Virus record (IMG/VR): IMGVR_UViG_3300022177_000081
Span: 1-48,127 of that record
Strand: one strand, 5' to 3'
DNA length: 48,127 nucleotides
Source: a virus
Lineage: Duplodnaviria; Caudoviricetes
Below are positions 5,425 to 47,033 of the stretch, piece by piece (the stretch's first letter is position 1; the number at the start of each line of letters is the position of its first letter). Below the pieces are notes generated by a model. It did not search any database and was not told the DNA's origin. It saw only the letters and a list, made by a program, of their open reading frames with translations. Position numbers and translations under genes: made by a program.

Positions 5425-7415
5425 CCCGCCGTCCCCCCGGCCTGTTCCATGGCCACTAAGAGCGGCGGCAAAGCATGCCGCACATCATCCGTTTCCTCGA
5501 CCCAGTTCGCCCGGGTCAGGGCCTCGGACATGACCGGAGGCACGGAGTTGCCGCAGGCCTTTGTCTGGTATTTCTTGGCCAGGGGCTTGCCGTTCACCAG
5601 GGGGTCGATTTTGTAGGTGTCGTGGAAGCTCTGGGCCCGGAACAGTTCACGCGGCTCGAACATGCGCAGCCCGACGTCCACGATCCGGCACACCACGCCG
5701 TCAAGCACCACCTCACCGGCCCAGGCGTCGCCGCACAGCCCGTCCCAATCATCCAGGATGAACCCGGCGGGACGCGGCCGGAAACGGATGAGCAGATCCC
5801 GGACGGCGGCGGCATGGTCACGCACGGCCTGAAACCGCACGTCGGCCAGGCTGAACCTGTCGGTGGCCGTGGCCGTGCCCAGGGGCTCGTTGACGGAATG
5901 CGCCACGCCCTGGCCGTAGTATTTGTCCACCAGCCCGCAACGGACCTCGCCCAGGTGGTTGCCCCCGGCTGTGGCCGTGGGCATGGGCTGACGGCTGTCC
6001 GCCCCGTGTTGGCACGTGCCGTAGAGCTTCACCAGATGCGAGGTGACGACGCCGGTTTTGCCGCCTCCGCCGGGCATCACCGTTCCCACGGGCGTATCCG
6101 CCGGAGCGCCGACGCTATGCCCGAACTGCCGCAAAATATGCGCGGTGCACACGGAATGATGATCTACACCGGTCACCGTCCCAAGCGGGACGTCGGGCCG
6201 GTGGCCGGTGACGCCGCCGTAATGTTTGAGGACACAGGCGGCCACGGCGAAATCCTGGCTGGCCGTCACCGTGCGCAGCGGTTCGCCTGGGGACCAGACG
6301 TGTTGGCTGCGGCCGGTGGATTTGCTGTGCGCCGGGCTGACCAGGACCGGCGCCATCACGGCATATTGTCCGCCCTTGGTGGACGCGGTGATGGTCCGCA
6401 TGGGGGCGTCGGCAGGCTGGGCGCGCTCCCGGCCGTCATAGTGTTCGATGGGGACAATCGCCGGAGCCACCACGGCATGCCGGTTTTCCGTGGTGACCGT
6501 GGCCAGCGGAGCGTCCGCGTGTTGCCCACGGACCTCGGTTTCCGATTTCGGGCCGTAGTAGGTGGAGACGAACGGCATGGCCAGGGCCTTGTCCGCCTTG
6601 GCGGTCATGGTGCGCATGGGCCGGTCCACTCCGGCAGGCGGGCTCTGGCCTTCGCGGCCGCCGACGCCCACGATGAACGGCCGGGGAGAGTTGACCACAA
6701 ACCGATCGATCCCCCGGGCGATGCGTTTCAGGGTGTTTTCGGCCAGCGGCCTGACCCGCTCGAAGATCGACGGGCAGGGGATGGACCAGTCGATGCACTC
6801 GGCGGCGGTCCGGTAGGGATGGGCCCGGCCGGGGCCGTGTGTCGGTACGGGCCAGACGATGGGCAAATCGTCCCGCCGGGCGATCAGAAACATCCGTTTG
6901 CGGATCGTCGGGGCCCCGTAGTCGCAGGCGCGAAGCTCACGGTGTTGGACGCGGTATCCCAGTTTTTGCAGCTGCCGCCGCCAGGCCCGGAACGTGGTCC
7001 CTTTCAGGTTTTCGATAGGGCGTTTGTCCGGGCCCAGTGGCCCCCATTCGGTGAATTCCTCGACGTTCTCGAGCATGATGAGCGTCGGCCGCACCTGCTT
7101 GGCCCACTTGATGACCACCCAGGCCAGATCCCGGATGTTCTGGCACTTGGGCTTGCCGCCCTTGGCCTTCGAGAAGTGTTTGCAGTCCGGGCTGGCCCAC
7201 AGGATGGACACGGGGCGGCCGCCCGTGACGTGGATTGGTTCCACCGCCCAGACGGACTGGCAGTAATGGACGGTGTTGGGGTGGTTGGCCTGATGCATCG
7301 CGATGGCCACCGGATCGTGGTTGATGGCGATGTCCGGCTCCCGGCCCAGAGCCCAGGACATTCCGAGGGATGCGCCGCCGCCGCCCGCGAACAGATCGAT
7401 GACGAGCCCGCTCAT
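5421..7415 (-). CDS. DNA (cytosine-5) methyltransferase with long repetitive variable region
   Basis: DLFAGGGG (motif I), SPDC (catalytic), ENV, YGAPTIRKR and GNSV (motif X). Confidence 0.95.
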   Translation of the reverse strand: MSGLVIDLFAGGGGASLGMSWALGREPDIAINHDPVAIAMHQANHPNTVHYCQSVWAVEPIHVTGGRPVSILWASPDCKHFSKAKGGKPKCQNIRDLAWVVIKWAKQVRPTLIMLENVEEFTEWGPLGPDKRPIENLKGTTFRAWRRQLQKLGYRVQHRELRACDYGAPTIRKRMFLIARRDDLPIVWPVPTHGPGRAHPYRTAAECIDWSIPCPSIFERVRPLAENTLKRIARGIDRFVVNSPRPFIVGVGGREGQSPPAGVDRPMRTMTAKADKALAMPFVSTYYGPKSETEVRGQHADAPLATVTTENRHAVVAPAIVPIEHYDGRERAQPADAPMRTITASTKGGQYAVMAPVLVSPAHSKSTGRSQHVWSPGEPLRTVTASQDFAVAACVLKHYGGVTGHRPDVPLGTVTGVDHHSVCTAHILRQFGHSVGAPADTPVGTVMPGGGGKTGVVTSHLVKLYGTCQHGADSRQPMPTATAGGNHLGEVRCGLVDKYYGQGVAHSVNEPLGTATATDRFSLADVRFQAVRDHAAAVRDLLIRFRPRPAGFILDDWDGLCGDAWAGEVVLDGVVCRIVDVGLRMFEPRELFRAQSFHDTYKIDPLVNGKPLAKKYQTKACGNSVPPVMSEALTRANWVEETDDVRHALPPLLVAMEQAGGTAG

Positions 7416-19028: not shown

Positions 19029-19538
19029 ATGCGCAGAGTCGCCGCTCGCACGGCGGCTGCGGTTTCTCTGGCGGTGTTGCTTGCCGTCGGCGTGGCTGCG
19101 GCCCAGGGATGGTATGGAATCTGTTATGCGGCTCAAGTCCAAGGTGGTATCAATCCGCTTACTGGACAACAGCTTCAATATGAGACGATTGAAGGCTGGA
19201 AAAAGGATAACAAGACAGAGAACAACGTGTCTCAGGATGAAAGCGAGTCAGACCGTGAGAAGAGATATTTTAACGAGTATTCCGAAAAGGCTATACAGGG
19301 CGACTATCAGGCCCAAAGAAATTTAGCATGGTTATACAGCACATCAAAGAATCCATTCATTGCTAATCTTATGCTTGGGTGTGCGTGGTATAAGTTGATT
19401 TTGCTATCAGGAAGTCCAAAAATTAATGATGGCGACATCGGAAATGTCAAGGTCTATTGCGGGAAACTCTCTCCCGAACAGCAGGCAGTGACCGAACAGC
19501 AGGCGCTGCATCTGTATCAGGAGATATACCAGAAATGA
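19029..19538 (+). CDS. Exported Sel1-like-repeat protein (moron, lower GC)
   Basis: Signal peptide ending AAA-Q; KAIQGDYQAQRNLAWLY..GCAWY Sel1-like motif; GGAGG RBS; AT-rich codons. Confidence 0.75.
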   Translation: MRRVAARTAAAVSLAVLLAVGVAAAQGWYGICYAAQVQGGINPLTGQQLQYETIEGWKKDNKTENNVSQDESESDREKRYFNEYSEKAIQGDYQAQRNLAWLYSTSKNPFIANLMLGCAWYKLILLSGSPKINDGDIGNVKVYCGKLSPEQQAVTEQQALHLYQEIYQK

Positions 19539-23392: not shown

Positions 23393-24424
23393 ATGCCCAT
23401 GATCAATCCGTTCGCCCAGGATGCCTTCAGTTTGGTCAGCCTGACCACGTCCATCAACCTCGTGCCCAATACCTACGGCCGTCTGTTGACCGGGAAAATC
23501 TTCGTCCATAAACCGATCACCACCACGTCCGTGCTGATCGAGCGCAAAGGCAATATCCTGACCCTGCTGCCGTCCCAGCCGCGCGGAGGCCCCGGTTCGC
23601 AGTCTCGTCACGGCGGCCGGAACATGATCTCGTTGACCGTGCCGCACATCCCCATGGATGACGTGATCTTGCCCCAGGCCTTCCAGGGCGTGAGGGAATT
23701 CGGCACCGAAAACTCGCTGAAAACCCTCTCGTCCGTCATGGGGGGCTGTCTGATCGACAACCACCGCAAATTCGAGATCACCTGGGAGTTCCTCATGTGG
23801 GGAGCCATCAAGGGTTTGATCTTGGACGGCGACGGCGAGACCGTCCTCGAAAATCTGTACGAGCGGTTCGGCATGCAGCAGAAGGTCATCTACTTCGATC
23901 TGGACAACGACGCCACGGACGTGGGCAGCACTTGCCGCGATCTGTGCCGCTACATCGAGGAAAACCTGTTCGGCGACGTGTCAACGGGCGTGCGTGCCTT
24001 CGTGTCCAAAGAATTTTTCGACAAGCTGATCACCCATCCCAGCGTCGAGAAATTCTACCTCAACCAAGTGGCCGCCGCCGAACTGACCAGCAAGGATATC
24101 CGCAAGGGATTTACCTTCAGCGGCGTGATTTTCGAGGAATTCGGCGGCCAGGCCCCCAGTTCCCAGGGAGCGGTCATCCGATTCATCGCCGAGGGTGAGG
24201 GACACGCGATCCCCGAGGGGACCATGTCCACGTTCCAGTTCGCCACAGCCCCCGGCAACTTCATTGACACCGTGAACACCCCTGGGGAAATGCTCTATGC
24301 CCGCCAGGAGCTCAAGGATTTCAACCGGGGCGTGGATCTGTGGTTCGAGTCGAACCCGCTGCCGTACTGCACCCGGCCCAACGTCCTGGTGAAATGCGTC
24401 GCGAGCGCGGACCCCGAGGCCTAA
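23393..24424 (+). CDS. Major capsid protein, lambda E family
   Basis: FSLVSLTTSIN, TWEFLMWGAIKG.ILD and ESNPLPYCTRP motifs. Confidence 0.93.
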   Translation: MPMINPFAQDAFSLVSLTTSINLVPNTYGRLLTGKIFVHKPITTTSVLIERKGNILTLLPSQPRGGPGSQSRHGGRNMISLTVPHIPMDDVILPQAFQGVREFGTENSLKTLSSVMGGCLIDNHRKFEITWEFLMWGAIKGLILDGDGETVLENLYERFGMQQKVIYFDLDNDATDVGSTCRDLCRYIEENLFGDVSTGVRAFVSKEFFDKLITHPSVEKFYLNQVAAAELTSKDIRKGFTFSGVIFEEFGGQAPSSQGAVIRFIAEGEGHAIPEGTMSTFQFATAPGNFIDTVNTPGEMLYARQELKDFNRGVDLWFESNPLPYCTRPNVLVKCVASADPEA

Positions 24425-24425
24425 G

Positions 24426-25325
24426 ATGTTTCCGTCCGGCGTCAAACACTTCAAGGCCCGCGAGTGGCGGCATGATCCGGACCGGGTGTCGCCCGATCTG
24501 GTGCTGTCCATGGACGGTGTCCGGGAAAAGGCCGGCGTCCCGATTCGCATCAATCAGGCCAGGGATTCGGCCGGGCATGTCCCGGGTTCTGGGCATTACG
24601 ACGATCCGGCCACGGCCGTGGATTTTGCATTCCTTGGCCTGACGTACCGCCGTCAACTGGATCTGCTGGATCAGGCCGGATTCTCCGGCATCGGATTCTA
24701 TCCGGACTGGAACACACCCGGCTGGCATGCCGACCAGAAGCAGCGCTCCGCGCGGGCGTTTTGGGTCTGCCGCAAAGGGCAGTACGCTTATTACCGATCG
24801 GCGGAGGAATTGGCGCAGGCCATGGGCTGGCACGAGGCCGCCCCGGCAGCGTCCCATGTGGACCTGATCCGCGCTGTGTCCACCCGTCACGGTCATCCGT
24901 GGGAACTGGTTCTGGCCATGGTCCGGAAGGAATCCGGCGGCAACCAGCACGCTATGCGCTTCGAGCCGGATTTTTTCCGGAAATACGTCGAGGGGCGCGA
25001 GCTTGGTTTTCGGCCGGAGCATTGCTCGAAGGCCACAGAGGCCTACGGCCGGGCGTTTTCCTGGGGACTGCTTCAGATCATGGGGGAGACGGCCAGGGAA
25101 CTGGGGTTTTCAGGGTGGTTCCCGGAATTGTGCGATCCGGAAACCGGCCTCGAATGGGGCTGCCGCTATCTGGCTGATCTGCGCCGCCGTTTTGGCGGCG
25201 AGGGGTGGCCTGTCGTGGTCCGGGCCTACAACGCCGGGTCCGGCGGCCGGAACAATCAGAGCAACAACTATCCGGGCGAGGTGTTGGAAAATCTCGGCGG
25301 GAGGTGGCCGGATGAGGCTGCGTAA
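24426..25325 (+). CDS. Two-domain endolysin: M15-like Zn peptidase plus SLT lytic transglycosylase
   Basis: SGH...ATAVD and GIGFY...WHAD (M15-like); KESGG, WGLLQIMG and AYNAG (SLT). Confidence 0.85.
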   Translation: MFPSGVKHFKAREWRHDPDRVSPDLVLSMDGVREKAGVPIRINQARDSAGHVPGSGHYDDPATAVDFAFLGLTYRRQLDLLDQAGFSGIGFYPDWNTPGWHADQKQRSARAFWVCRKGQYAYYRSAEELAQAMGWHEAAPAASHVDLIRAVSTRHGHPWELVLAMVRKESGGNQHAMRFEPDFFRKYVEGRELGFRPEHCSKATEAYGRAFSWGLLQIMGETARELGFSGWFPELCDPETGLEWGCRYLADLRRRFGGEGWPVVVRAYNAGSGGRNNQSNNYPGEVLENLGGRWPDEAA

Positions 25326-25830
25326 ACTCTTTTGTCATCTCGCGAATCCCCTGCACATCTACTGCAGATTGTGTGACATGGGGATCTCCAGGCTGCGTTC
25401 CAGACATTGGGCGGCGGTATGGGAGCGATGCGTCGCCAGACCGTTGGGCATCGTTTCCCTGACCGTGTTGCTGATCGTGGCGATAACCGTCCCTGCGGCC
25501 TCTGCCCGGCATCTGCATCTGGAGCGTGAGTATCAGCGGGTCTGGTGCGACAGGCAACAGGGAGCCATGGAGGTCCGCCTGCCCGGCGGCCTGCGTATCG
25601 ACTGCGAGACGGCGACTCATGCCGTCGAGGTCGATTTTGCTCCCAAGTGGGCCGAGGCCGTGGGGCAATCGTTGGCCTATGCCGCTGTCACCGGGAAGCG
25701 GGCCGGGATCCTGCTGATCCTGGAAAAACCGTCCGATGAACGGCACCTGGCGAAATTGCAGTCGGTCATCACCACCTACTCGTTGCCGGTGGACATCTGG
25801 CTGATCGAACCGGGCGAGGTCGGGCAATGA
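25312..25830 (+). CDS. Membrane-anchored or exported protein with a PD-(D/E)XK-like nuclease-fold domain
   Basis: Hydrophobic segment ending ASA, then E...RIDC....AVEVD...WAEAVGQSLAY motif. Confidence 0.6.
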   Translation: MRLRKLFCHLANPLHIYCRLCDMGISRLRSRHWAAVWERCVARPLGIVSLTVLLIVAITVPAASARHLHLEREYQRVWCDRQQGAMEVRLPGGLRIDCETATHAVEVDFAPKWAEAVGQSLAYAAVTGKRAGILLILEKPSDERHLAKLQSVITTYSLPVDIWLIEPGEVGQ

Positions 25831-26252
25831 ACAGGATGCAATCCGCCTGGCGTCTGGCGCGGGGCCTGTTCTCTTCGCGGACCGGACGCGCGACCGGCTG
25901 TCTGTACCTGCTGTTGTCCACCGTCCAGGTGCTCGTGTCCCTGGGGTGGGTGGATCCGAGCGGGCATGTGGACATGCGCCTGTGGATCAACGGCTACATT
26001 TTGGACTTGCCGCAATTCAATCTGTGGTGGGTCGTGTCGGCCGTCGGCGGTGTGGCTGCCAGCTGGGGCCTGTACGGCCGGGCCGTGGCCTCCGGGCCGC
26101 TGGTTTCCCGTGCAGTTCCCGGGACTGCTGCGGACGCTGTGGTGCCGGAGACACCGCCAACGGGATCGACACCGGAGGACAGGCCTCCCCCGGTGGTGCT
26201 CGGCGTCCCGGCCGGTGCCGGTCTGGGGCAAACATTTTCACGGGAGGGATGA
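25827..26252 (+). CDS. Membrane protein in the lysis cassette
   Basis: Two hydrophobic segments and a Pro-rich tail; ATGA coupling. Confidence 0.65.
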   Translation: MNRMQSAWRLARGLFSSRTGRATGCLYLLLSTVQVLVSLGWVDPSGHVDMRLWINGYILDLPQFNLWWVVSAVGGVAASWGLYGRAVASGPLVSRAVPGTAADAVVPETPPTGSTPEDRPPPVVLGVPAGAGLGQTFSREG

Positions 26253-26255
26253 GCC

Positions 26256-26627
26256 ATGGCGAGGCTGCTGCTTGTGCTGTTCCTCATGCTGTGCTCCGGG
26301 TGCGTCGGCATCCTACCCACACGTACCACCGATCCGTCCGCAACCGTGCAGGCCGGAGCCGACTGGCTGCGGCTGTCCCTGGATCGTCTGCGCCAGGGCA
26401 TCGACGCCATAGAACCGCACGCCCCTGTCGAGGCGGCCAGTCTGGACAACGAGTATGCGGCCGCGGCCGCCGAATGCGAAGCCGCCGAACAGGCCGCTGC
26501 AGCCGGTGCTCCCGAGGCGCAATCCATCTGGCAGCGGGCCCGGGAGTCCATCGGAAGGCTGGCCAGGGCCTGTCTGCCGGTCGCACTCAAATACGGTCTG
26601 ACTCGCTTCTTCGTCGAGGCTGGCTGA
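26256..26627 (+). CDS. Lipoprotein (possible spanin component)
   Basis: MARLLLVLFLMLCSG-C lipobox; helical Ala-rich mature region. Confidence 0.75.
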   Translation: MARLLLVLFLMLCSGCVGILPTRTTDPSATVQAGADWLRLSLDRLRQGIDAIEPHAPVEAASLDNEYAAAAAECEAAEQAAAAGAPEAQSIWQRARESIGRLARACLPVALKYGLTRFFVEAG

Positions 26628-26629
26628 CC

Positions 26630-27550
26630 ATGCGCATCCTCTCTCTCTCCGGCGGCGGTATCCGCGGCTACCTCCAGGCCCTGGTCGTGGCGGCAATCGA
26701 ATCCGCCACATGCCGCGACGCTTGCCAGCTGTTCGATCTGATCGTCGGCACCAGCACGGGCGGCATTCTCGGGGCCGGTCTTGCCCTGGGCATCCCGGCC
26801 GGGGACATGGCGGCGTTTTACCGTGACCACGGTCGCACCATCTTTCGCAAGTCGCTCGCCAAAAAACTGCGGTCTGTCTGCGGACTTGCCGACGAAAGTT
26901 ACGACGCGGCGGGTCTGGAATCGGGACTTGCCGCCGTGTTCGGCGACGTAGCGCTCTCGCAGACCCGCACCGATCTGTGCCTGACGGCCTACGATATCGA
27001 GGGCCGCCGGCTGGTGGTGTTCAAATCATGGAAAGCGGCGGCCGATCCGGCCCAGGATCACCTGTTGACCGTAGCTTGCCGGGCCACGGCCGCCGCACCG
27101 ACCTATTTCGAGCCGGGCATGGTTAAAACCGACACGGGCCTCATGCGGGCTTGTGTCGACGGCGGCGTGTGGGCCAACCATCCCGGTATGGTCGGCCTGG
27201 TGGAGGCCATCAAGCGGGGTGTGTCGCCCGAGGCCGTCCAGATGCTGTCCATCGGCACCGGCTCCGAGGATCGGCCGTACCTACGGTCCGAGGCGTCGGG
27301 CTGGGGATTGGCCGGGTGGGCCAGGCCGTTGCTCGACATCCTGTTCTCCGGCCAGGCCGCCGCCGTCGATTACCAATGCCTGCAACTCCTGGGCGACAAT
27401 TACGTTTCCCTGCAGCCTACCCTGGCCGAGCCTGTCCCCATGGACGCGGTGACGCCCCGGGCGTTCACCATGATGGAATTCCACGCAGGCAGGCTCATTG
27501 ACGGCGGCGACTACCGGCGAGCCCTGCATCTGCTGGAAGGAGGGGCGTAA
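26630..27550 (+). CDS. Patatin-like phospholipase
   Basis: LSGGGIRG oxyanion motif, GTSTG nucleophile elbow, AAPTYF, DGG. Confidence 0.95.
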   Translation: MRILSLSGGGIRGYLQALVVAAIESATCRDACQLFDLIVGTSTGGILGAGLALGIPAGDMAAFYRDHGRTIFRKSLAKKLRSVCGLADESYDAAGLESGLAAVFGDVALSQTRTDLCLTAYDIEGRRLVVFKSWKAAADPAQDHLLTVACRATAAAPTYFEPGMVKTDTGLMRACVDGGVWANHPGMVGLVEAIKRGVSPEAVQMLSIGTGSEDRPYLRSEASGWGLAGWARPLLDILFSGQAAAVDYQCLQLLGDNYVSLQPTLAEPVPMDAVTPRAFTMMEFHAGRLIDGGDYRRALHLLEGGA

Positions 27551-28026
27551 TGCTCAAGGCGGCTGGCGAATACCTCCTGGAGTCCGTGCAGGATCTGCTG
27601 GTTTGCTACGGTCTGAAGGTCGGAGGATCCACAGTGATCGGACTGGCCTGCCTGTGGATCGGCGGCCAGGACAAGCTGATCGAAGGCCTGTTCGGTCTGA
27701 TCTGCCTGGATTTCGCCCTTGGAATCGGCCATGGCTGGAAGCTCGGCCGTCTGTCCAAATCCAAATTCCTGGGTGGCCTCGCGAAATTCGTCCTGTACTA
27801 CGCCACGCTGTTGTGCGCCTCGCTCCTCGATTCCGTCCTGAATGCCAAGACCGAGGCCATCTGGCATGCCCAGTTCAGGGATTTCCTGATCATCTATTTC
27901 TGCCTGCATGAATCACTTTCCATTCTGCAGCACCTGCATTTTTTCGGCGTCCCGCTGCCGGCCGCGCTCATGAAGCGCCTGACGGACTATCGGGACTGCA
28001 AGCTGTGGAAGGGGAGGGCGGCGTGA
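27550..28026 (+). CDS. Holin (phage holin 4 / toxin-secretion-like family)
   Basis: Multiple TMs; LDFALG...LSKSKFLGGLAKF...ESLSILQHL..GVPLP motif. Confidence 0.85.
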   Translation: MLKAAGEYLLESVQDLLVCYGLKVGGSTVIGLACLWIGGQDKLIEGLFGLICLDFALGIGHGWKLGRLSKSKFLGGLAKFVLYYATLLCASLLDSVLNAKTEAIWHAQFRDFLIIYFCLHESLSILQHLHFFGVPLPAALMKRLTDYRDCKLWKGRAA

Positions 28027-31939: not shown

Positions 31940-32176
31940 TTAGGATTTTTCCCTCTTGAAAAAGAACTCGTAGAGGTATTGGCATTGTACGCCATTAACA
32001 ACGTCTGACGTCATGTACCGATGGCTTGTTATCATTTCCCATCCTTCAGACCCAAGAACATCCAACGGCGCGGATATTGATGGGTAATTCAGTATGGGGT
32101 TGTCCCCGTGTTGCATGAAGTAACTCCCGTTGTTGTCCAACAGGATCTGTTGAAGCAAGTACTCGAAGGTCTTCAT
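31940..32176 (-). CDS. Antisense moron, DUF4177-like small protein
   Basis: AGGAGG RBS; FEY...LDVLGSEGWEMI...FFFKR pattern; lower GC. Confidence 0.75.
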   Translation of the reverse strand: MKTFEYLLQQILLDNNGSYFMQHGDNPILNYPSISAPLDVLGSEGWEMITSHRYMTSDVVNGVQCQYLYEFFFKREKS

Positions 32177-32727: not shown

Positions 32728-32915
32728 TCGGGGCACGCCTGGGCGACACGGTCACGCGCGTCGCCCAGGTGATGCCCCGGCCCGAGGACGTCCGGATGAT
32801 GATTGTGGCCCTGGCCTCGCGCACCGGATGGAGCCTGGGCGAATTGCTGGATCTGACGCTGACGGAATTGGTTGCCTGGATGGAGGCGGCCCGGGATGTG
32901 GAACCCAGGCTATGA
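32715..32915 (+). CDS. -1 frameshift extension of the chaperone (E+E'-like)
   Basis: TTTTTTG at 32715-32721 just before the gpE stop; the -1 frame encodes TGWSLGELLDLTLTELVAW. Confidence 0.8.
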   Translation, partial: FFGLIGARLGDTVTRVAQVMPRPEDVRMMIVALASRTGWSLGELLDLTLTELVAWMEAARDVEPRL

Positions 32916-33080
32916 GCGGGGGAAGAGGGAGCGGATGAAATACGAAACGAAATCGACCCCGAGGACTATGAGGCCGGCCAGAAAACCGTGCCCGAACGCA
33001 GCCGGAATATCCTGGATCCCGAACAGGGCCCGGATGGCGACTTCGCCGAGGAATACCAACAAGAAGATGGTGTAGGTCAT
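32910..33080 (-). CDS. Small antisense two-TM membrane protein (56 aa)
   Basis: MTYTIFLLVFLGEVAIRALFG...GFLAGLIVLGVDFVSYFI; fills the gap between E' and tape measure. Confidence 0.55.
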   Translation of the reverse strand: MTYTIFLLVFLGEVAIRALFGIQDIPAAFGHGFLAGLIVLGVDFVSYFIRSLFPRS

Positions 33081-35496
33081 GAGCAAGGCCATCACGTTAG
33101 GGTTGGTGGTGGGCGCAACGCTCGCGCCTGGATTCACCACTGTATTTAAGACAGCTCGCGAACAGGCGCAAGGGTTAAAGACAGCGCTGTCCAGTTCGCG
33201 ACTGGGCGCGTCGGCCGCCGCCGACGTGGCCCGGCTCGGCGCCCGGCTTGATCGGCTGAAAGCCTCCCAGGGCGCGTTGGGCACGGACAACGTGAAGCTG
33301 GCCAATCGAATCGCACAGACACAAAAAGAACTGGGAAAAGCCCAGGCCACGGCGAGCAAGTACGGCGTCACACTGGACAACGCTTCGGCCAAGCACAAGG
33401 CGTTTGCTGCCTCCGCCGACAAGGCCAACCAATCCTTGAATCGGTTACAGGCTTCCCAGCGGCGGAAAGAGGTTCGGGACGAAGCCAGGGGTGATCTGCT
33501 CGGGGTCGCAGGGGCGACGGCTGCCTTTGTTGCCCCTGTGAAGGTGGCCATGGGTGAGGAGCATCGCCTGCGAGCCATCGGCAACATCGCTGACCTCTCC
33601 GCCCAACAAGTGGAGGAATTGGGGCAGTCCATGCGCCGTGTCGGGGGAGACGTCAACCAGACCACAGACGCCATGCTGGATGCCTACAACGTGCTGCTGG
33701 GCAAAGGCCTGGATCCCGGCCGGGCCACGGCGGTGTTGGCCCCCATCGGCAAAACGGCCACGGCCGCCCAGGCTTCGGTCGAAGACCTGTCCGTGACCAC
33801 CTACGCCCTGCTCGACAACCTCAAGCTGGCGGAAAACCAAGTTCCCAAAGCCATGGACATGCTGGCCCAGGCCGGAAAGGAAGGCAGTTTTGAGCTCAAG
33901 GACATGGCCAGGTTTTTCCCATTATTGACGGCCCAGGCCGCCACCCTGGGCATGCAGGGCACGGAGGCCGTGGCCACTCTGGGAAGTGCCCTGCAGGTGG
34001 CCATGAAGGGCGCGGGATCGCCTGAAGAGGCCGCAAACAACCTCAAGAATTTCCTGCAGAAAATGACCGCGCCGGATACGGTCAAGCGCTTCAAGGAAGA
34101 ATTCGGAGTCAACCTTGAGACGAGCATGAAGGCGGCCATGGCCAGGGGGGAGAACCCTGTCGAATACATGATCGGCCTGATCAGCCAACTCACCAAGGGG
34201 GACAAGTTTCGTATCGGTGAACTGTTCGGCGACATGCAGGTTGGCAATTTCCTGGCCCCCATGCTCCAGAACATGGAGGAATACCGGCAGATCAAGGAAC
34301 GGACTCTGGGCGCATCCGGGGTGGTGGACCAGGATTTCGCCAACATGATGACCACCGGGACCGAACGCATCAAATCCGCCACGATCTCCCTGACCCGGCT
34401 TGGATCGACGTTGGGATCTGTGCTGCTGCCCACCGTGGGGGCCGCCGCCGAGAGTCTGGGGTCGATGGTCAGTGTGGTTGCCGATCTGGCCCAGCGATAT
34501 CCGAACCTGACGACAGTGATCGCCTTTGCGGCTGCAGGACTGGTGGGATTCAAGGTGGCCGTGTTGGCTGCGCGCATCGGCGGAACGTTGCTGATGGACG
34601 GCGTCAGCCTGGTCACCGGGGCCTTCCGGCTGTTGCGGCCGTCGGTTATCGCGGCCAACGCCAGCATGTTGTGGAGCCGAACCGTCGCCCTGGCCTCGGC
34701 CGCCGCACATGGAGTCTGGCAAGGGGCGATCCTGGTAGGCCGGGGAGTTATGCTCGGTTGGGCGGCCGTGACCGCTGCCGTGACCGCGGCCCAGTGGCTC
34801 TGGAACGCCGCACTGACCGCCAACCCAATTGGTGTGGTCATCATGGCCGTGGCCGCCCTGGCCGGGGCCGCCTACCTCATTTACGAGAACTGGGAGCCGA
34901 TCAAGGCCTGGTTCGCCGACCTGTGGGACTCCATCACCGGGTTTTGCGGCAAGGCCATGAACGAAATCACCAGCCTGATCACGTCGCCTCTTGGTTTTTT
35001 GGAAGATAAACTGGGAACCGTCATGGGCTGGCTCGGAATTGGCGGCAAGGATGCTGCCGAGGATGTGGCCAAGGTTGCCGCCGATTTGGGCCAGACCGTT
35101 CCCGAGCCAGCCAGTCCGGCCCCGGCCGCGTCGCCCGCCGCCGGTGTCAAGCCCGCCACCCTGGCCGGGATGACGTCCGAAAAGGCCCAGGCCCTGGCCT
35201 CCGATCCTGCATGGCAGTCGCCCAAGCATCAGGAGATCCTGCAGCGGGCCATGGGCGGGCAGGGCGGGCAGGGTGGTCAGGCTGCCCCCGCGTCCCTCCC
35301 GTCCGGGCCGCCCGCCTCGGGGAAGGGTGGACCAGCCGGGTCGGGGCTGGTCGTGAACAACAACGTCACGGTGACCGGCGTCGGCCTGGAGCATGTGCAT
35401 CAGATCGTGAAGGCGGCCATGGACACCTTCTCCCGAGACCTGGAATCGCGCCTTGAGGCCATGCGTTCGCAGCAGATGAGGCGGTCCTATGGCTGA
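33079..35496 (+). CDS. Tail tape measure protein (TP901-family core)
   Basis: 805 aa, Ala-rich; AGKEGSFELKDMA, EAANNLKNFL and ANPIGVVI..VAAL..IYENWEPIKAWF motifs. Confidence 0.95.
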   Translation: MSKAITLGLVVGATLAPGFTTVFKTAREQAQGLKTALSSSRLGASAAADVARLGARLDRLKASQGALGTDNVKLANRIAQTQKELGKAQATASKYGVTLDNASAKHKAFAASADKANQSLNRLQASQRRKEVRDEARGDLLGVAGATAAFVAPVKVAMGEEHRLRAIGNIADLSAQQVEELGQSMRRVGGDVNQTTDAMLDAYNVLLGKGLDPGRATAVLAPIGKTATAAQASVEDLSVTTYALLDNLKLAENQVPKAMDMLAQAGKEGSFELKDMARFFPLLTAQAATLGMQGTEAVATLGSALQVAMKGAGSPEEAANNLKNFLQKMTAPDTVKRFKEEFGVNLETSMKAAMARGENPVEYMIGLISQLTKGDKFRIGELFGDMQVGNFLAPMLQNMEEYRQIKERTLGASGVVDQDFANMMTTGTERIKSATISLTRLGSTLGSVLLPTVGAAAESLGSMVSVVADLAQRYPNLTTVIAFAAAGLVGFKVAVLAARIGGTLLMDGVSLVTGAFRLLRPSVIAANASMLWSRTVALASAAAHGVWQGAILVGRGVMLGWAAVTAAVTAAQWLWNAALTANPIGVVIMAVAALAGAAYLIYENWEPIKAWFADLWDSITGFCGKAMNEITSLITSPLGFLEDKLGTVMGWLGIGGKDAAEDVAKVAADLGQTVPEPASPAPAASPAAGVKPATLAGMTSEKAQALASDPAWQSPKHQEILQRAMGGQGGQGGQAAPASLPSGPPASGKGGPAGSGLVVNNNVTVTGVGLEHVHQIVKAAMDTFSRDLESRLEAMRSQQMRRSYG

Positions 35497-44260: not shown

Positions 44261-44518
44261 ATGATCGATCTGTATCTGCATGCGCCGACAAAAGAGGCCC
44301 TGTCGTCCGCCCTGGCACCGTTGGGCCTGGATGTGGACGGTGATCTGATGGTTAGCCATCGGCATTCGCTGGTGGTGATCAGTGAGAGCGACATCGATGG
44401 GATCGTCGTGGCGATCCGCTGTCTGGACAACTCCCTGGCTGCGGAAATTCGTGGTGTCGGCGTATCCGAGGTCGAGCGCCCGGCAGCATTTTTCTGGGCG
44501 GGGGGTGGGCATGCGTAA
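44261..44518 (+). CDS. Small fibre-associated protein
   Basis: AGGAG RBS; MIDLYL N-terminus; between the two RBPs. Confidence 0.7.
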   Translation: MIDLYLHAPTKEALSSALAPLGLDVDGDLMVSHRHSLVVISESDIDGIVVAIRCLDNSLAAEIRGVGVSEVERPAAFFWAGGGHA

Positions 44519-47033
44519 AGCGCGCGAGTGGTTCCGTCGTGAATTACGATTGGCGTGGCCAGGGATAGACCCTGGGTCAACATCTGACACAGTGCAAACA
44601 ACGTTTGTGCAGCTCGCTGACACGCATGTGCCTGTCAACGCGCAAACATTATACGTGACTGGATACGCCTCCCCAGGAGACGGCGGCGGGGCTCGGTGGC
44701 GCCGTGTCGGCCTCGAGCCGGACCACGAAGGCAAAGTGCAGTCTGCAGACGGCGCGTGGTGGTGCTATGACGAGCCAGTCGTCTATGTTGCGGCGTTTGG
44801 AGTGATGCACAATAACCGGGCCAATGCGGCCGCGAATACCCTTGCGCTCCAAAGAGCCGTCGACTACGGCGGTCAACAGAACGTTCCCGTTGATCTCGGT
44901 TCCAGGTCCATCTTCATCGACGCGACATTGCACATCAAGTACCCCGCCACCGTGTACGGACAGGGGAACGCCCTGTGGCGATGGTTGAACAACGGCGCAA
45001 ACGAGGTGGCCCCGACGCAGATTGTTTTGATCGGCACAGGCCCAAAGACGTGGCGTGTGGAGGGCGTTTCGTCTATGCGCGGGTCGGGCGCGGTCTGGCC
45101 AAACCCGAGCAGCTGTCCGGCGACGGTGAATGACGCCGAATACAGCATGCAGACCCTAACCGACAGCAACGGCGTAGCCATCAGCCTGTCTGTCGGGATC
45201 CTGGTGTCCGGCCTGAACGCCTCGTTCGCCAATTTGACCGGATTTCGTGTTTTGCCGGACGGCGGTGGAGACGACGGCCTAGGATTGTATAATGACTATG
45301 CCAACGCCGACGAAAGCACACCGTGGGCCGCAAATTGGGATTATGGTATCGTTGTCGGTGGAGGCGTAAACGTCTCTGTACAGGACGTGCAATGTGTAGG
45401 CCATTTTCGCCGCAGTGGTATGATGATATGCACTATCGATTCTCCAGTGTATAGCAGCTTTATTAACCCCTTTCACCTGCATATTGAAGGGTGCAAATTT
45501 GAAGGATGGCGGGCGTTGGCTATGCGCGGGGCTGACAGTTACCGCATAACCGAAACAGACGGCGCGTCATATGTAAAAATTCCATATTCGGCCGACAATC
45601 CATTCCGCAGCTTGCGATCTGTACGATTCCTGACATCTGCATTCAGTGGGCCGCAGGGGACGTTTTCAGATGCGAGCGTGACGAATAGCGGGACGATGCT
45701 CCGGTTGTCCGGGTTTGACGAGGGTATCCCCGCAGGGGTAGCCGTCGGAGGATATATAAAGCCACCAGCCAGTGGTGGAGGCAGCAGCCACGTTGTTATT
45801 CGAGACACAGAGTTGCATCCAATACGGCACACGTCTGGCAGGCTGTGCAACGATGTAATGTTAGGTGATAAGGCGTTTCCGTCTCCAGCAGCTCTATTTG
45901 AATGTAGTGGGCAAGCATTTGTCGAGATCATGCTTGAAAATGTAAAATTTTTTACTGCTGACGAAGTTTTTTTCCATTTACATGAAGTTAGGACAATCGC
46001 ATTCAATAAGTGCTGGTTCGAAGTAACAACATCAAAAACATGGCCCAGCGGCCATCAACTGGCCAGATGCATAGCCGCGCCAACGGTCAATACGAATCCT
46101 AATGTGCCAAATGGTTTTGCATCAGGATATACGAACAACGTTGTGATAGACACCATGAATTTCCAGTATCTGGGCACCATGGATATGCGCCCGTATTATC
46201 CACTGTTGTCAACTGCACCATTTGACAATGCATTAGATACTGGAATGTTCCGTCCGGGGTTTGGCAGTTGCAGGACGTACCACGCTGATCATAACGCCGT
46301 ATGGGGCGCAGTCCTGCGCGCGCCGGTAGGTGGCAGGGCGGCGATCTGCGGTGGGACAGGGCACGACCCAACGTCTGGGAATTACGCTGCAAAACTGTGG
46401 TACAACGATGGGCCGCTAGGGGACAACCTCCAGCACAGCGTTGATCTAGCGCCAAGTCTGCATAACTCAAAAAATCTTGGGTCGATCCTGGCACAATATG
46501 CCACCGTGCATGCCGGTGTCGTGAATTCAAATACGCTGAACAGGCTGTATTTAGCTGCCAACGGTATATCTCTGTGGCAGGCATATACCGGCAGTTTTTC
46601 ACCCACGGACGACGGGGTGAAGAGCGTCGGATCATCCAGCTTGAGGATATCCGCGTTGTACGCCGCATCAGGAACAATTATTACATCTGACGAAAAAGAA
46701 AAACAGGATATTTCGTCGTTGGATGAAACGGAACGGCTGGTCGCACAAGACATAAAAGCACTCATGAAAACGTTTAAATTTCGCGACGCTGTCAGCAAGA
46801 AGGGGGATGGTGCGCGTATACATGTTGGGGTGATTGCGCAAGATGTTGCGGCCGCGTTTATTGCTCGTGGGTTGGATCCTCGTCGGTATGCTCTGTTTTG
46901 TCACGACGAGTGGGAGTCGGATGATGCGGTAACTGATGAGCAGGGCAACGTTATCCAACCTGCGTGTCCGGCCGGAGCACGCTACGGCATCCGATATGAC
47001 GAGTTATTATCTTTTGTTGTTTCGGCGCTATAG
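44511..47033 (+). CDS. Tailspike / depolymerase-like RBP with C-terminal S74 intramolecular chaperone
   Basis: GYASPGDGGG, AFGV....NTLALQRAVD (beta-helix entry), TSDEKEKQDI, HVGVIAQ, YGIRYDEL. Confidence 0.85.
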   Translation: MRKAREWFRRELRLAWPGIDPGSTSDTVQTTFVQLADTHVPVNAQTLYVTGYASPGDGGGARWRRVGLEPDHEGKVQSADGAWWCYDEPVVYVAAFGVMHNNRANAAANTLALQRAVDYGGQQNVPVDLGSRSIFIDATLHIKYPATVYGQGNALWRWLNNGANEVAPTQIVLIGTGPKTWRVEGVSSMRGSGAVWPNPSSCPATVNDAEYSMQTLTDSNGVAISLSVGILVSGLNASFANLTGFRVLPDGGGDDGLGLYNDYANADESTPWAANWDYGIVVGGGVNVSVQDVQCVGHFRRSGMMICTIDSPVYSSFINPFHLHIEGCKFEGWRALAMRGADSYRITETDGASYVKIPYSADNPFRSLRSVRFLTSAFSGPQGTFSDASVTNSGTMLRLSGFDEGIPAGVAVGGYIKPPASGGGSSHVVIRDTELHPIRHTSGRLCNDVMLGDKAFPSPAALFECSGQAFVEIMLENVKFFTADEVFFHLHEVRTIAFNKCWFEVTTSKTWPSGHQLARCIAAPTVNTNPNVPNGFASGYTNNVVIDTMNFQYLGTMDMRPYYPLLSTAPFDNALDTGMFRPGFGSCRTYHADHNAVWGAVLRAPVGGRAAICGGTGHDPTSGNYAAKLWYNDGPLGDNLQHSVDLAPSLHNSKNLGSILAQYATVHAGVVNSNTLNRLYLAANGISLWQAYTGSFSPTDDGVKSVGSSSLRISALYAASGTIITSDEKEKQDISSLDETERLVAQDIKALMKTFKFRDAVSKKGDGARIHVGVIAQDVAAAFIARGLDPRRYALFCHDEWESDDAVTDEQGNVIQPACPAGARYGIRYDELLSFVVSAL

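Follow-up and report, generated by a model that had tools for sequence, protein, structure and literature searches.

Conservation of a patatin-like phospholipase gene in phage lysis cassettes with no recognised canonical spanin pair

We analysed the whole virus record IMGVR_UViG_3300022177_000081 (Duplodnaviria; Caudoviricetes), a stretch of 48,127 bases hereafter called the window, with a focus on a six-gene lysis cassette that contains a gene for a predicted patatin-like phospholipase. All six genes are on the + strand, between a capsid gene (ending at 24424) and a head-tail gene (starting at 28023), in the order SLT endolysin, predicted exported nuclease-fold protein, two-helix membrane protein, lipoprotein, patatin and holin; they are denoted g1 to g6 (nt, nucleotides):

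24426-25325, + strand: g1, SLT endolysin
25312-25830, + strand: g2, 172 amino acids, overlapping g1 by 14 nt
25827-26252, + strand: g3, membrane protein of 141 amino acids, overlapping g2 by 4 nt
26256-26627, + strand: g4, predicted lipoprotein of 123 amino acids, after a 3-nt gap from g3
26630-27550, + strand: g5, patatin-like phospholipase (predicted) of 306 amino acids, after a 2-nt gap from g4
27550-28026, + strand: g6, holin of 158 amino acids, overlapping g5 by 1 nt

The tight coupling and the phage-like codon usage described in the initial annotation are both borne out: the open reading frames (ORFs) are set apart by gaps of 1-3 nt or overlap by 1-14 nt, and the G+C content at third codon positions (GC3) of the six genes (0.75-0.80) matches that of four structural genes (0.72-0.89), with two low-GC genes of the window at 0.51-0.57. 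The codon model was trained on the structural genes of the window. No promoter-like site was found within the cassette. The arrangement is beyond chance, as it recurs in 25 records.

The g5 product matches the Pfam Patatin family (PF01734) with E = 4.4e-24 and 86.2 bits, against a gathering cut-off of 27.7. The GGGIRG oxyanion loop, the GTSTG motif (Ser42) and the DGG motif (Asp177) are intact, and the Ser-Asp dyad and glycine loop are invariant in 49/49 near-clade patatins; judged from its sequence, g5 encodes a patatin-like phospholipase with intact catalytic motifs. No export signal was found in g5. An apparent lipobox at residue 28 was rejected, as it shares residues with the catalytic glycine loop region and did not pass a stricter scan. 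The adjoining g6 matches Phage_holin_4_1 in Pfam (E = 1.1e-21) and TIGR01593, toxin secretion/phage lysis holin.

The neighbourhood survey of homologous patatins proposed with the initial annotation was carried out with a profile of 21 close patatins, which gave 216 viral relatives (best 80 kept); genes were called around the closest 33 patatin loci with our own gene caller. Patatin genes occur in four settings: in phages with a lambda-type head like that of the window; in a cassette between the terminase gene and an SU10-type portal; in phages with a lambda-like late block; and after the tail genes. The first three settings make up the 25 cassette records, in which two pairs are >90% identical in patatin. 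All 25 encode an endolysin at most 2.6 kb upstream on the same strand (24 recognised by hidden Markov models (HMMs), L125 by Pfam), the endolysin class differing between SLT, lysozyme and Hydrolase_2. The two-helix membrane unit is present in 21/25 cassettes, as is a lipoprotein, whose gene is directly upstream of the patatin in most. A g6-type holin is directly downstream of the patatin in 14 of the 25; the others have different small membrane genes, or in one case a LydA holin, at this position.

The linkage was likewise recovered from other seeds. Of 15 viral loci seeded with the holin, 14 carry the patatin directly upstream, the remaining locus being cut by the contig end; the same holds for 9/9 holin-seeded metagenome loci, two of them new. 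Seeding with an unrelated, non-lysis upstream gene gave 12 loci, 11 on contigs known for the patatin cassette and one ending before the cassette. In a patatin tree (127 rows, quick method), each of the four settings forms one clade, with Shimodaira-Hasegawa-like approximate likelihood-ratio test (SH-aLRT) values of 99-100, the pattern that a core gene passed on vertically would give. The four clades nest in a 52-row clade (SH-aLRT 99) that includes a few unrelated rows; the patatins of Wolbachia phage WO and the cyclase-linked patatin of L148 fall outside it. Recurrence, holin-seeded loci and tree thus agree with the earlier proposal of a core late or lysis gene rather than a moron, and we conclude that the g5 patatin is a conserved core gene of the lysis cassette.

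Of 36 more distant viral patatin loci, 9 have a wall hydrolase at most two genes away on the same strand (neighbours hand-picked); in L156 the patatin is located between a holin and a lysozyme, and L122 is found in a Chryseobacterium genome as well. A genome scan recovered only distant patatins, and in a 401-genome phylum sample there were 15 matches, at most 321 bits each and none in the phage-clade range.

The same data bear on whether the patatin, as a defence effector of CapV type or a moron of benefit to the lysogen, stands in the late operon by chance. CapV illustrates that the patatin fold can disrupt bacterial membranes via lipid hydrolysis (PMC12480259), and g5 resembles CapV (NF041079; 8ZR9, 9KH6) in being a single-domain patatin with a Ser-Asp dyad, of the same broad family. 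Its score against the NF041079 model, 192.4 bits, is close to the cut-off of 200, which two of the four relatives tested exceed, and phospholipase effector HMMs of PADLOC score up to 234 bits. The score is nonetheless below the cut-off, the plant patatin 1OXW scores roughly level with the CapV structures, and no CD-NTase cyclase was found among the neighbours of g5 or in the 29 window ORFs scanned, a subset of all ORFs of the window. The nucleotide-contact positions match in part: of the cyclic GMP-AMP (cGAMP) contacts of AbCapV, K149 corresponds to K132 and E207 to E192 of g5, F147 is replaced by V130, D159 is ambiguous and R279 is unaligned, and the phage clade conserves these contacts less well than the outgroup does (F, 14/49 vs 108/145; K, 26/49 vs 90/145; E, 32/49 vs 111/145). 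The only cyclase-linked patatin found, on the viral contig L148 (7980-10099), where the patatin adjoins a SMODS/DncV-like cyclase in a true arrangement of the CBASS type (antiphage signalling based on cyclic oligonucleotides), is distant in the tree, on a long branch. With the late-operon setting, the lack of a promoter-like site, the phage-like GC3 and the coupled stops and starts also counting against it, we regard a defence or moron role as very improbable. The CBASS link drawn in the initial annotation stands as membership of one broad family and, given the score and the different tree position, goes no further than that resemblance. Three other viral contigs of ~30% GC (L127, L129, L131) have a patatin gene flanked by a PAS/GAF histidine kinase on one side and a response regulator on the other (tested with Pfam for L127).

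The succession of a membrane gene and a lipoprotein gene (g3 and g4) in a lysis cassette recalls lambda Rz/Rz1 and the u-spanin T1 gp11 (PMC6139136). It could be proposed that g3 and g4 are an unrecognised, ordinary separated pair of inner-membrane (i-) and outer-membrane (o-) spanins, with the patatin irrelevant to lysis; the two genes overlap by ~28 nt in some relatives, annotation often misses spanins (PMC6139136; LambdaSo), and two g4 relatives give very weak Rz-like PHROG matches (E 0.02-0.1), mostly in the signal region. The i-spanin shape, one N-terminal transmembrane domain and a periplasmic coiled coil, is however not that of g3, which has two hydrophobic segments joined by a short loop and followed by a Pro-rich tail, and has no coiled-coil body. 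A protein search returned 14 g3 homologs, the named ones from Solidesulfovibrio/Desulfovibrio U5L, with lengths too short for fusions; in an alignment of 11 homologs, both hydrophobic segments and short motifs are conserved and the tails vary; a g3 alignment proved too variable for seeding a locus scan. By language-model features, every one of the closest named families is a holin family (0.84-0.86, a lead only). In relatives, g3-like units are fused to lysozyme C-termini or lipoprotein N-termini, a fused unit matches the holin PHROGs 34682 and 4712, and in L093, L106 and L167 g3 is found with no lipoprotein. These features suggest that g3 is a holin-like or endolysin-partner protein, and not one of i-spanin shape.

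The lipoprotein g4 carries the signal of an o-spanin (lipobox CSG-C16) and lacks the short, Pro-rich, mostly unstructured periplasmic part: it has 2 prolines in its first 35 residues, as against 11-14 in the true o-spanins, and its predicted structure is a folded three-helix bundle with a basic amphipathic C-terminal tail (predicted local distance difference test score, pLDDT, 80.6). It does not appear to be beta-rich with a C-terminal transmembrane helix, as a u-spanin would be. Foldseek gave no match for g4 in the PDB or BFVD at E<=0.001, fold matches by VIA were generic helical bundles only (best Z 10.8), and its atlas look-alikes are unnamed (0.82-0.84). A six-frame scan of the 48-kb record identified g4 as the sole lipobox ORF in any frame, so an embedded o-spanin was not found. 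Neither g3 nor g4 gave an Rz PHROG match, whilst control pairs from sister phages match PHROG 1403; nor did a heuristic spanin detector find an i-/o-spanin pair in 18 patatin-bearing records scanned whole. Since g3 appears holin-like and g4 is predicted to be a three-helix bundle, the two do not form a canonical spanin pair, in agreement with the initial annotation, and it is highly unlikely that they are an ordinary pair overlooked.

L097 combines lysozyme, g3-like unit and lipoprotein in one polyprotein, and polyproteins that unite a two-helix unit of holin-like type with a helical bundle and have an internal lipobox are present in L097:470-1678, L345:5471-6166, L346, L359:5498-6097, L361 and L362:5718-6449, that of L362 with an added cationic module. 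Compared profile to profile, g3 and g4 match the fused proteins weakly (probability 50 and 42, 22-23 columns); the fusions therefore share module types with them, and homology is firm in the L097/L098/L087-type cases and for the c30 lipoprotein only.

A capsid-seeded scan (8 loci) revealed two sister phages, G003 (fragment) and G004 (complete), with a capsid 55% identical to that of the window and the same flanking gene order. In the slot of the window cassette, both have a holin, an endolysin and an overlapping i-/o-spanin pair of Rz/Rz1 type (PHROG 1403, E 1e-13 and 2e-21), and no patatin match was found in either. Four distant endolysin loci with a Pro-rich lipoprotein gene overlapping a membrane gene likewise gave no patatin, three of them in partial records.

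The endolysin g1 has a C-terminal SLT lytic transglycosylase domain (Pfam SLT at 147-281, E 7.5e-15); residues 17-160 match phrog_894 endolysin weakly (E 0.0024). The N-terminal domain, which gave no useful match among PDB sequences, is presumably an M15-type zinc peptidase, by its motifs. No export signal was seen in g1. The endolysin gene of the closest relative is split in L084 (5786-6684) and whole in L446 (865-1764), probably an assembly difference.

No Pfam or PHROG family was matched by g2, g3 or g4. In g2, a small N-terminal module is followed by a signal-like hydrophobic helix (residues 47-65) and a restriction-endonuclease-like domain, which is predicted to be exported. The module HMM was built solely from g2 N-termini; it matches a free 59-residue ORF in L447 and out-of-frame ORFs in the endolysin linkers of L086, L087, L091, L097 and L098 (the embedded ORFs with E values from 1e-11 to 1e-15; a GGAGG ribosome-binding site accompanies one of them):

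25312..25446, + strand: g2 N-terminal module of ~45 residues, cationic, helical, conserved motif H..N..H..CRL...G
L097:936-1100: embedded cationic ORF in Pro/Ala-rich endolysin linker (embedded ORFs listed: 46-55 residues)
L098:1262-1399: embedded cationic ORF in endolysin linker of the same kind
L086/L091 ~7186-7329: embedded cationic ORF, same kind of linker
L087:1373-1516: embedded cationic ORF, same kind of linker

The module, three short helices in the predicted structure of g2 (pLDDT 83.6), comprises 45-59 residues with a net charge of +4 to +12. It is found in 18/25 cassettes, including 3 of the 4 that have no lipoprotein, and at three loci where no patatin was seen. The phiKT disruptin gp28 is a small cationic helical peptide of a spanin-less phage, to which the module is similar in size and charge (10.1101/515445). 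As differences from gp28, the module shows a conserved His/Asn/Cys motif and, in the window, is joined to a nuclease-fold domain predicted to be exported. The module is a disruptin-like candidate, being small, cationic and helical, which is a loose criterion.

The g2 domain is predicted to have a restriction-endonuclease-like fold of PD-(D/E)XK type: the best fold match is NucS 2vld (Z 8.9, root-mean-square deviation 2.2, 89 aligned), with AF1548 (Z 8.3) and PaqCI (Z 8.1) next by VIA and many nucleases of the same fold below, and with no Foldseek match at E<=0.001. In our reading, the usual E-x-K site is E106-V-D108, with no lysine at that position. The full domain is present in 10/25 cassettes, and 69/80 loci of g2 homologs are outside this cassette; it is likely an optional passenger. 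In Mu-like relatives (L286:5696-6100 (-), L293:11349-11807, L288:1167-1625, L345:3972-4484), another predicted secreted nuclease, which we take to be staphylococcal-nuclease-like by motif, directly precedes the lysis genes, in parallel to the g2 domain.

The explanation we favour, with moderate confidence, is that the patatin serves lysis as an accessory phospholipase, in a system lacking a canonical spanin pair. According to this scheme, all six genes would be expressed late, with endolysin and patatin accumulating in the cytoplasm and g4 being lipidated and sent to the envelope. Triggering of the holin g6, perhaps tuned by the holin-like g3, would then let the endolysin cut the wall and give the patatin access to the damaged inner membrane and to the phospholipid inner leaflet of the outer membrane. 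The fatty acids and lysophospholipids so formed, jointly with g4 and/or the cationic module of g2, would make the outer membrane weaker until turgor bursts it without any membrane fusion; the g2 nuclease-fold domain probably degrades released DNA. The patatin would improve release and not be indispensable.

Several observations weigh against an accessory lytic role. The holin, upstream-gene and endolysin seeds were taken from patatin-bearing phages, so close kin are favoured, and the automatic run of the spanin detector missed the i-spanin partner of G004. The swap of spanins and patatin between the sister phages and the window may reflect a different host envelope. Without control by the holin, a cytoplasmic lipase would put burst size at risk, and we identified no brake. 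When records seeded with the endolysin were searched whole, a patatin was found in 6/69, and in 1/14 of those at least 90% complete; most of the 69 records are fragments or distant, and 11 further loci, copies of the window or patatin cassettes already known, were left out. The complete G001 gave no patatin, no spanin pair and no lipoprotein, and neither patatin nor canonical pair was found in the close relatives G448 (93% complete), G472 (100%), G473 (96%) and G442 (82%). Trimming is not the cause of the absence of patatin in G448 and G442, because the methylase gene that elsewhere comes after the patatin is present; in G448 the tail fibre directly adjoins it. Lastly, 11 records place the patatin behind the tail genes, away from the lysis genes, which a virion or post-lysis role fits equally well.

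Some of the patatin-less relatives have other candidate genes. A short membrane-anchored helical gene in G448, G472 and G473, with no useful PHROG match (two tested), might encode an atypical i-spanin. Possible atypical i-spanins are encoded in L350:5891-6112, L352:2359-2682, L377:5982-6278 and L378:5993-6292 (short membrane-anchored helical genes with a Cys-Pro end, from Mu-like phages with no patatin match), the L377 gene being followed by a small lipoprotein gene. The lysis slot of G001 (L261:8049-9656) contains an unassigned, probable endolysin, a GTA_holin_3TM holin and two small genes.

These relatives bear directly on a stronger proposal, that the patatin is a spanin substitute required for rupture of the outer membrane, with g4 as its activator or inhibitor. 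Patatin and canonical pair occur together in no record examined, and the lipoprotein gene is the usual upstream neighbour of the patatin, as this proposal would have it. It is countered by the near-complete relatives with neither patatin nor pair, and by the lipoproteins themselves, which are absent in 4/25 cassettes, belong to three types where present, are found in the patatin-less G472, G473 and G442, and are unlinked to the patatin (>20 kb away) in G006, G007 and G011. We judge a required substitute improbable. Of the initial annotation, the idea of a dedicated partner or inhibitor in g4 is accordingly not upheld; phospholipase-assisted disruption retains the support of the missing canonical pair and the spanin swap, whilst its form as a required spanin substitute is weakened by the relatives that have neither. 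These phages often manage without canonical spanins, whether or not a patatin is present.

A further account assigns outer-membrane breakage to g4 (alpha-helical, u-spanin-like) and/or the cationic g2 module (disruptin-like), and a non-lytic late task to the patatin, such as freeing progeny from membrane debris or virion entry. Lipoprotein and/or module are present in 24/25 cassettes; several phages have fusions of a g3-like unit with a lipoprotein unit; the module survives as an embedded out-of-frame ORF of gp28-like size and charge; and the patatin is at the tail end both in the 11 records and in phage WO. In many g4 relatives the tail is also hydrophobic with almost no charge (KD19 reaching 1.9; several homologs at 1.6-1.9 with 1-2 charges), although the tail of the window g4 is charged (KD19 1.06, 4 charges), does not look like a transmembrane helix and packs as a bundle. 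Six tail-end records had their lysis genes read (Mu-like by gene order); all have endolysin and holin-like genes and no spanin pair, but the g4-type lipoprotein is present in only 3/6, with no lipoprotein in the lysis region of G010, G012 and G014. In addition, L089 has a patatin without lipoprotein or module, and small cationic helices are common in phage genomes, with 528 candidates in 91 spanin-less genomes. The account also leaves the tight patatin-holin coupling of three lineages unexplained, and we consider it possible but rather doubtful.

An accessory lytic phospholipase can be compared with several known systems. The lytic cassette proposed, as putative, for Wolbachia phage WO comprises a patatin, a holin-like gene and an ankyrin gene, with no endolysin; the paper that proposed it ties the WO patatin to arthropod hosts (PMC9203015; related WO papers PMC5062602 and PMC4701759). 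The two cassettes share a patatin adjoining a holin-like gene, no recognised spanins and a proposed exit role; they differ in that the window has an endolysin, a Pfam holin and a lipoprotein, whereas WO has an ankyrin protein and no endolysin. The window further encodes a tyrosine-type Phage_integrase and no ankyrin in its cassette, in contrast to the serine recombinase and eukaryotic association module of Wovirus, and its host is likely a free-living sulfate reducer, in contrast to the intracellular host to which the WO patatin is tied. WO patatins are 34-36% identical to g5. The mycobacteriophage LysB, an esterase for the mycolate layer, breaches the outer layer during release. Colicin release uses a lysis protein and the host phospholipase OMPLA (PMC4305986). 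In each case, a lipolytic enzyme breaches the outer layer for release, as proposed for g5; the mycolate envelope of LysB hosts is unlike that of the window host, and OMPLA is a host outer-membrane enzyme, whereas g5 is phage-encoded and predicted to be soluble. Judged from literature listings, a patatin within a complete holin-endolysin cassette was not found described, the phage WO papers being the only relevant ones.

Pfam matches in the window include the integrase, a contractile tail, and a terminase, portal and capsid of lambda type. A 238-kb metagenome contig contains a stretch identical to the window, which is therefore probably a prophage. The named patatin homologs nearest to g5 are from Solidesulfovibrio (64%), Desulfovibrio sp. 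U5L and Fundidesulfovibrio; because the named g5 and g3 homologs come from that group, we infer a Solidesulfovibrio-type sulfate reducer as host. Spanins could not be identified in 91/677 (~13%) of the phages of Gram-negative hosts surveyed in PMC6139136, and the cassette offers concrete candidates for breaking the outer membrane of such hosts within one operon. The sister phages with Rz/Rz1 in its slot are a natural control. The idea of patatin lysis is carried from the uncultured endosymbiont of phage WO to a host group with cultured members, and a eukaryotic host is not needed for the patatin-holin linkage. More broadly, and only tentatively, phages of Solidesulfovibrio-type sulfate reducers may use a spanin-independent, mix-and-match system for breaking the outer membrane, interchangeable with Rz/Rz1 in the same slot and made up of a holin-released patatin, a three-helix protein with a lipid anchor, and a cationic peptide that may be concealed out-of-frame in the endolysin gene; phage-encoded lipid hydrolysis would then be a general way of lysing Gram-negative hosts that has so far gone unrecognised.

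Outside the cassette, a tail-fibre-like ORF with a Peptidase_S74 chaperone domain (44382-47033) has a low GC content (52-55%) and is probably a recent swap. Small moron-like ORFs are present in the late region, one with low GC3 and an N-terminal hydrophobic helix (19029-19538, + strand) and two on the opposite strand (31940-32176 and 32910-33092, both - strand).

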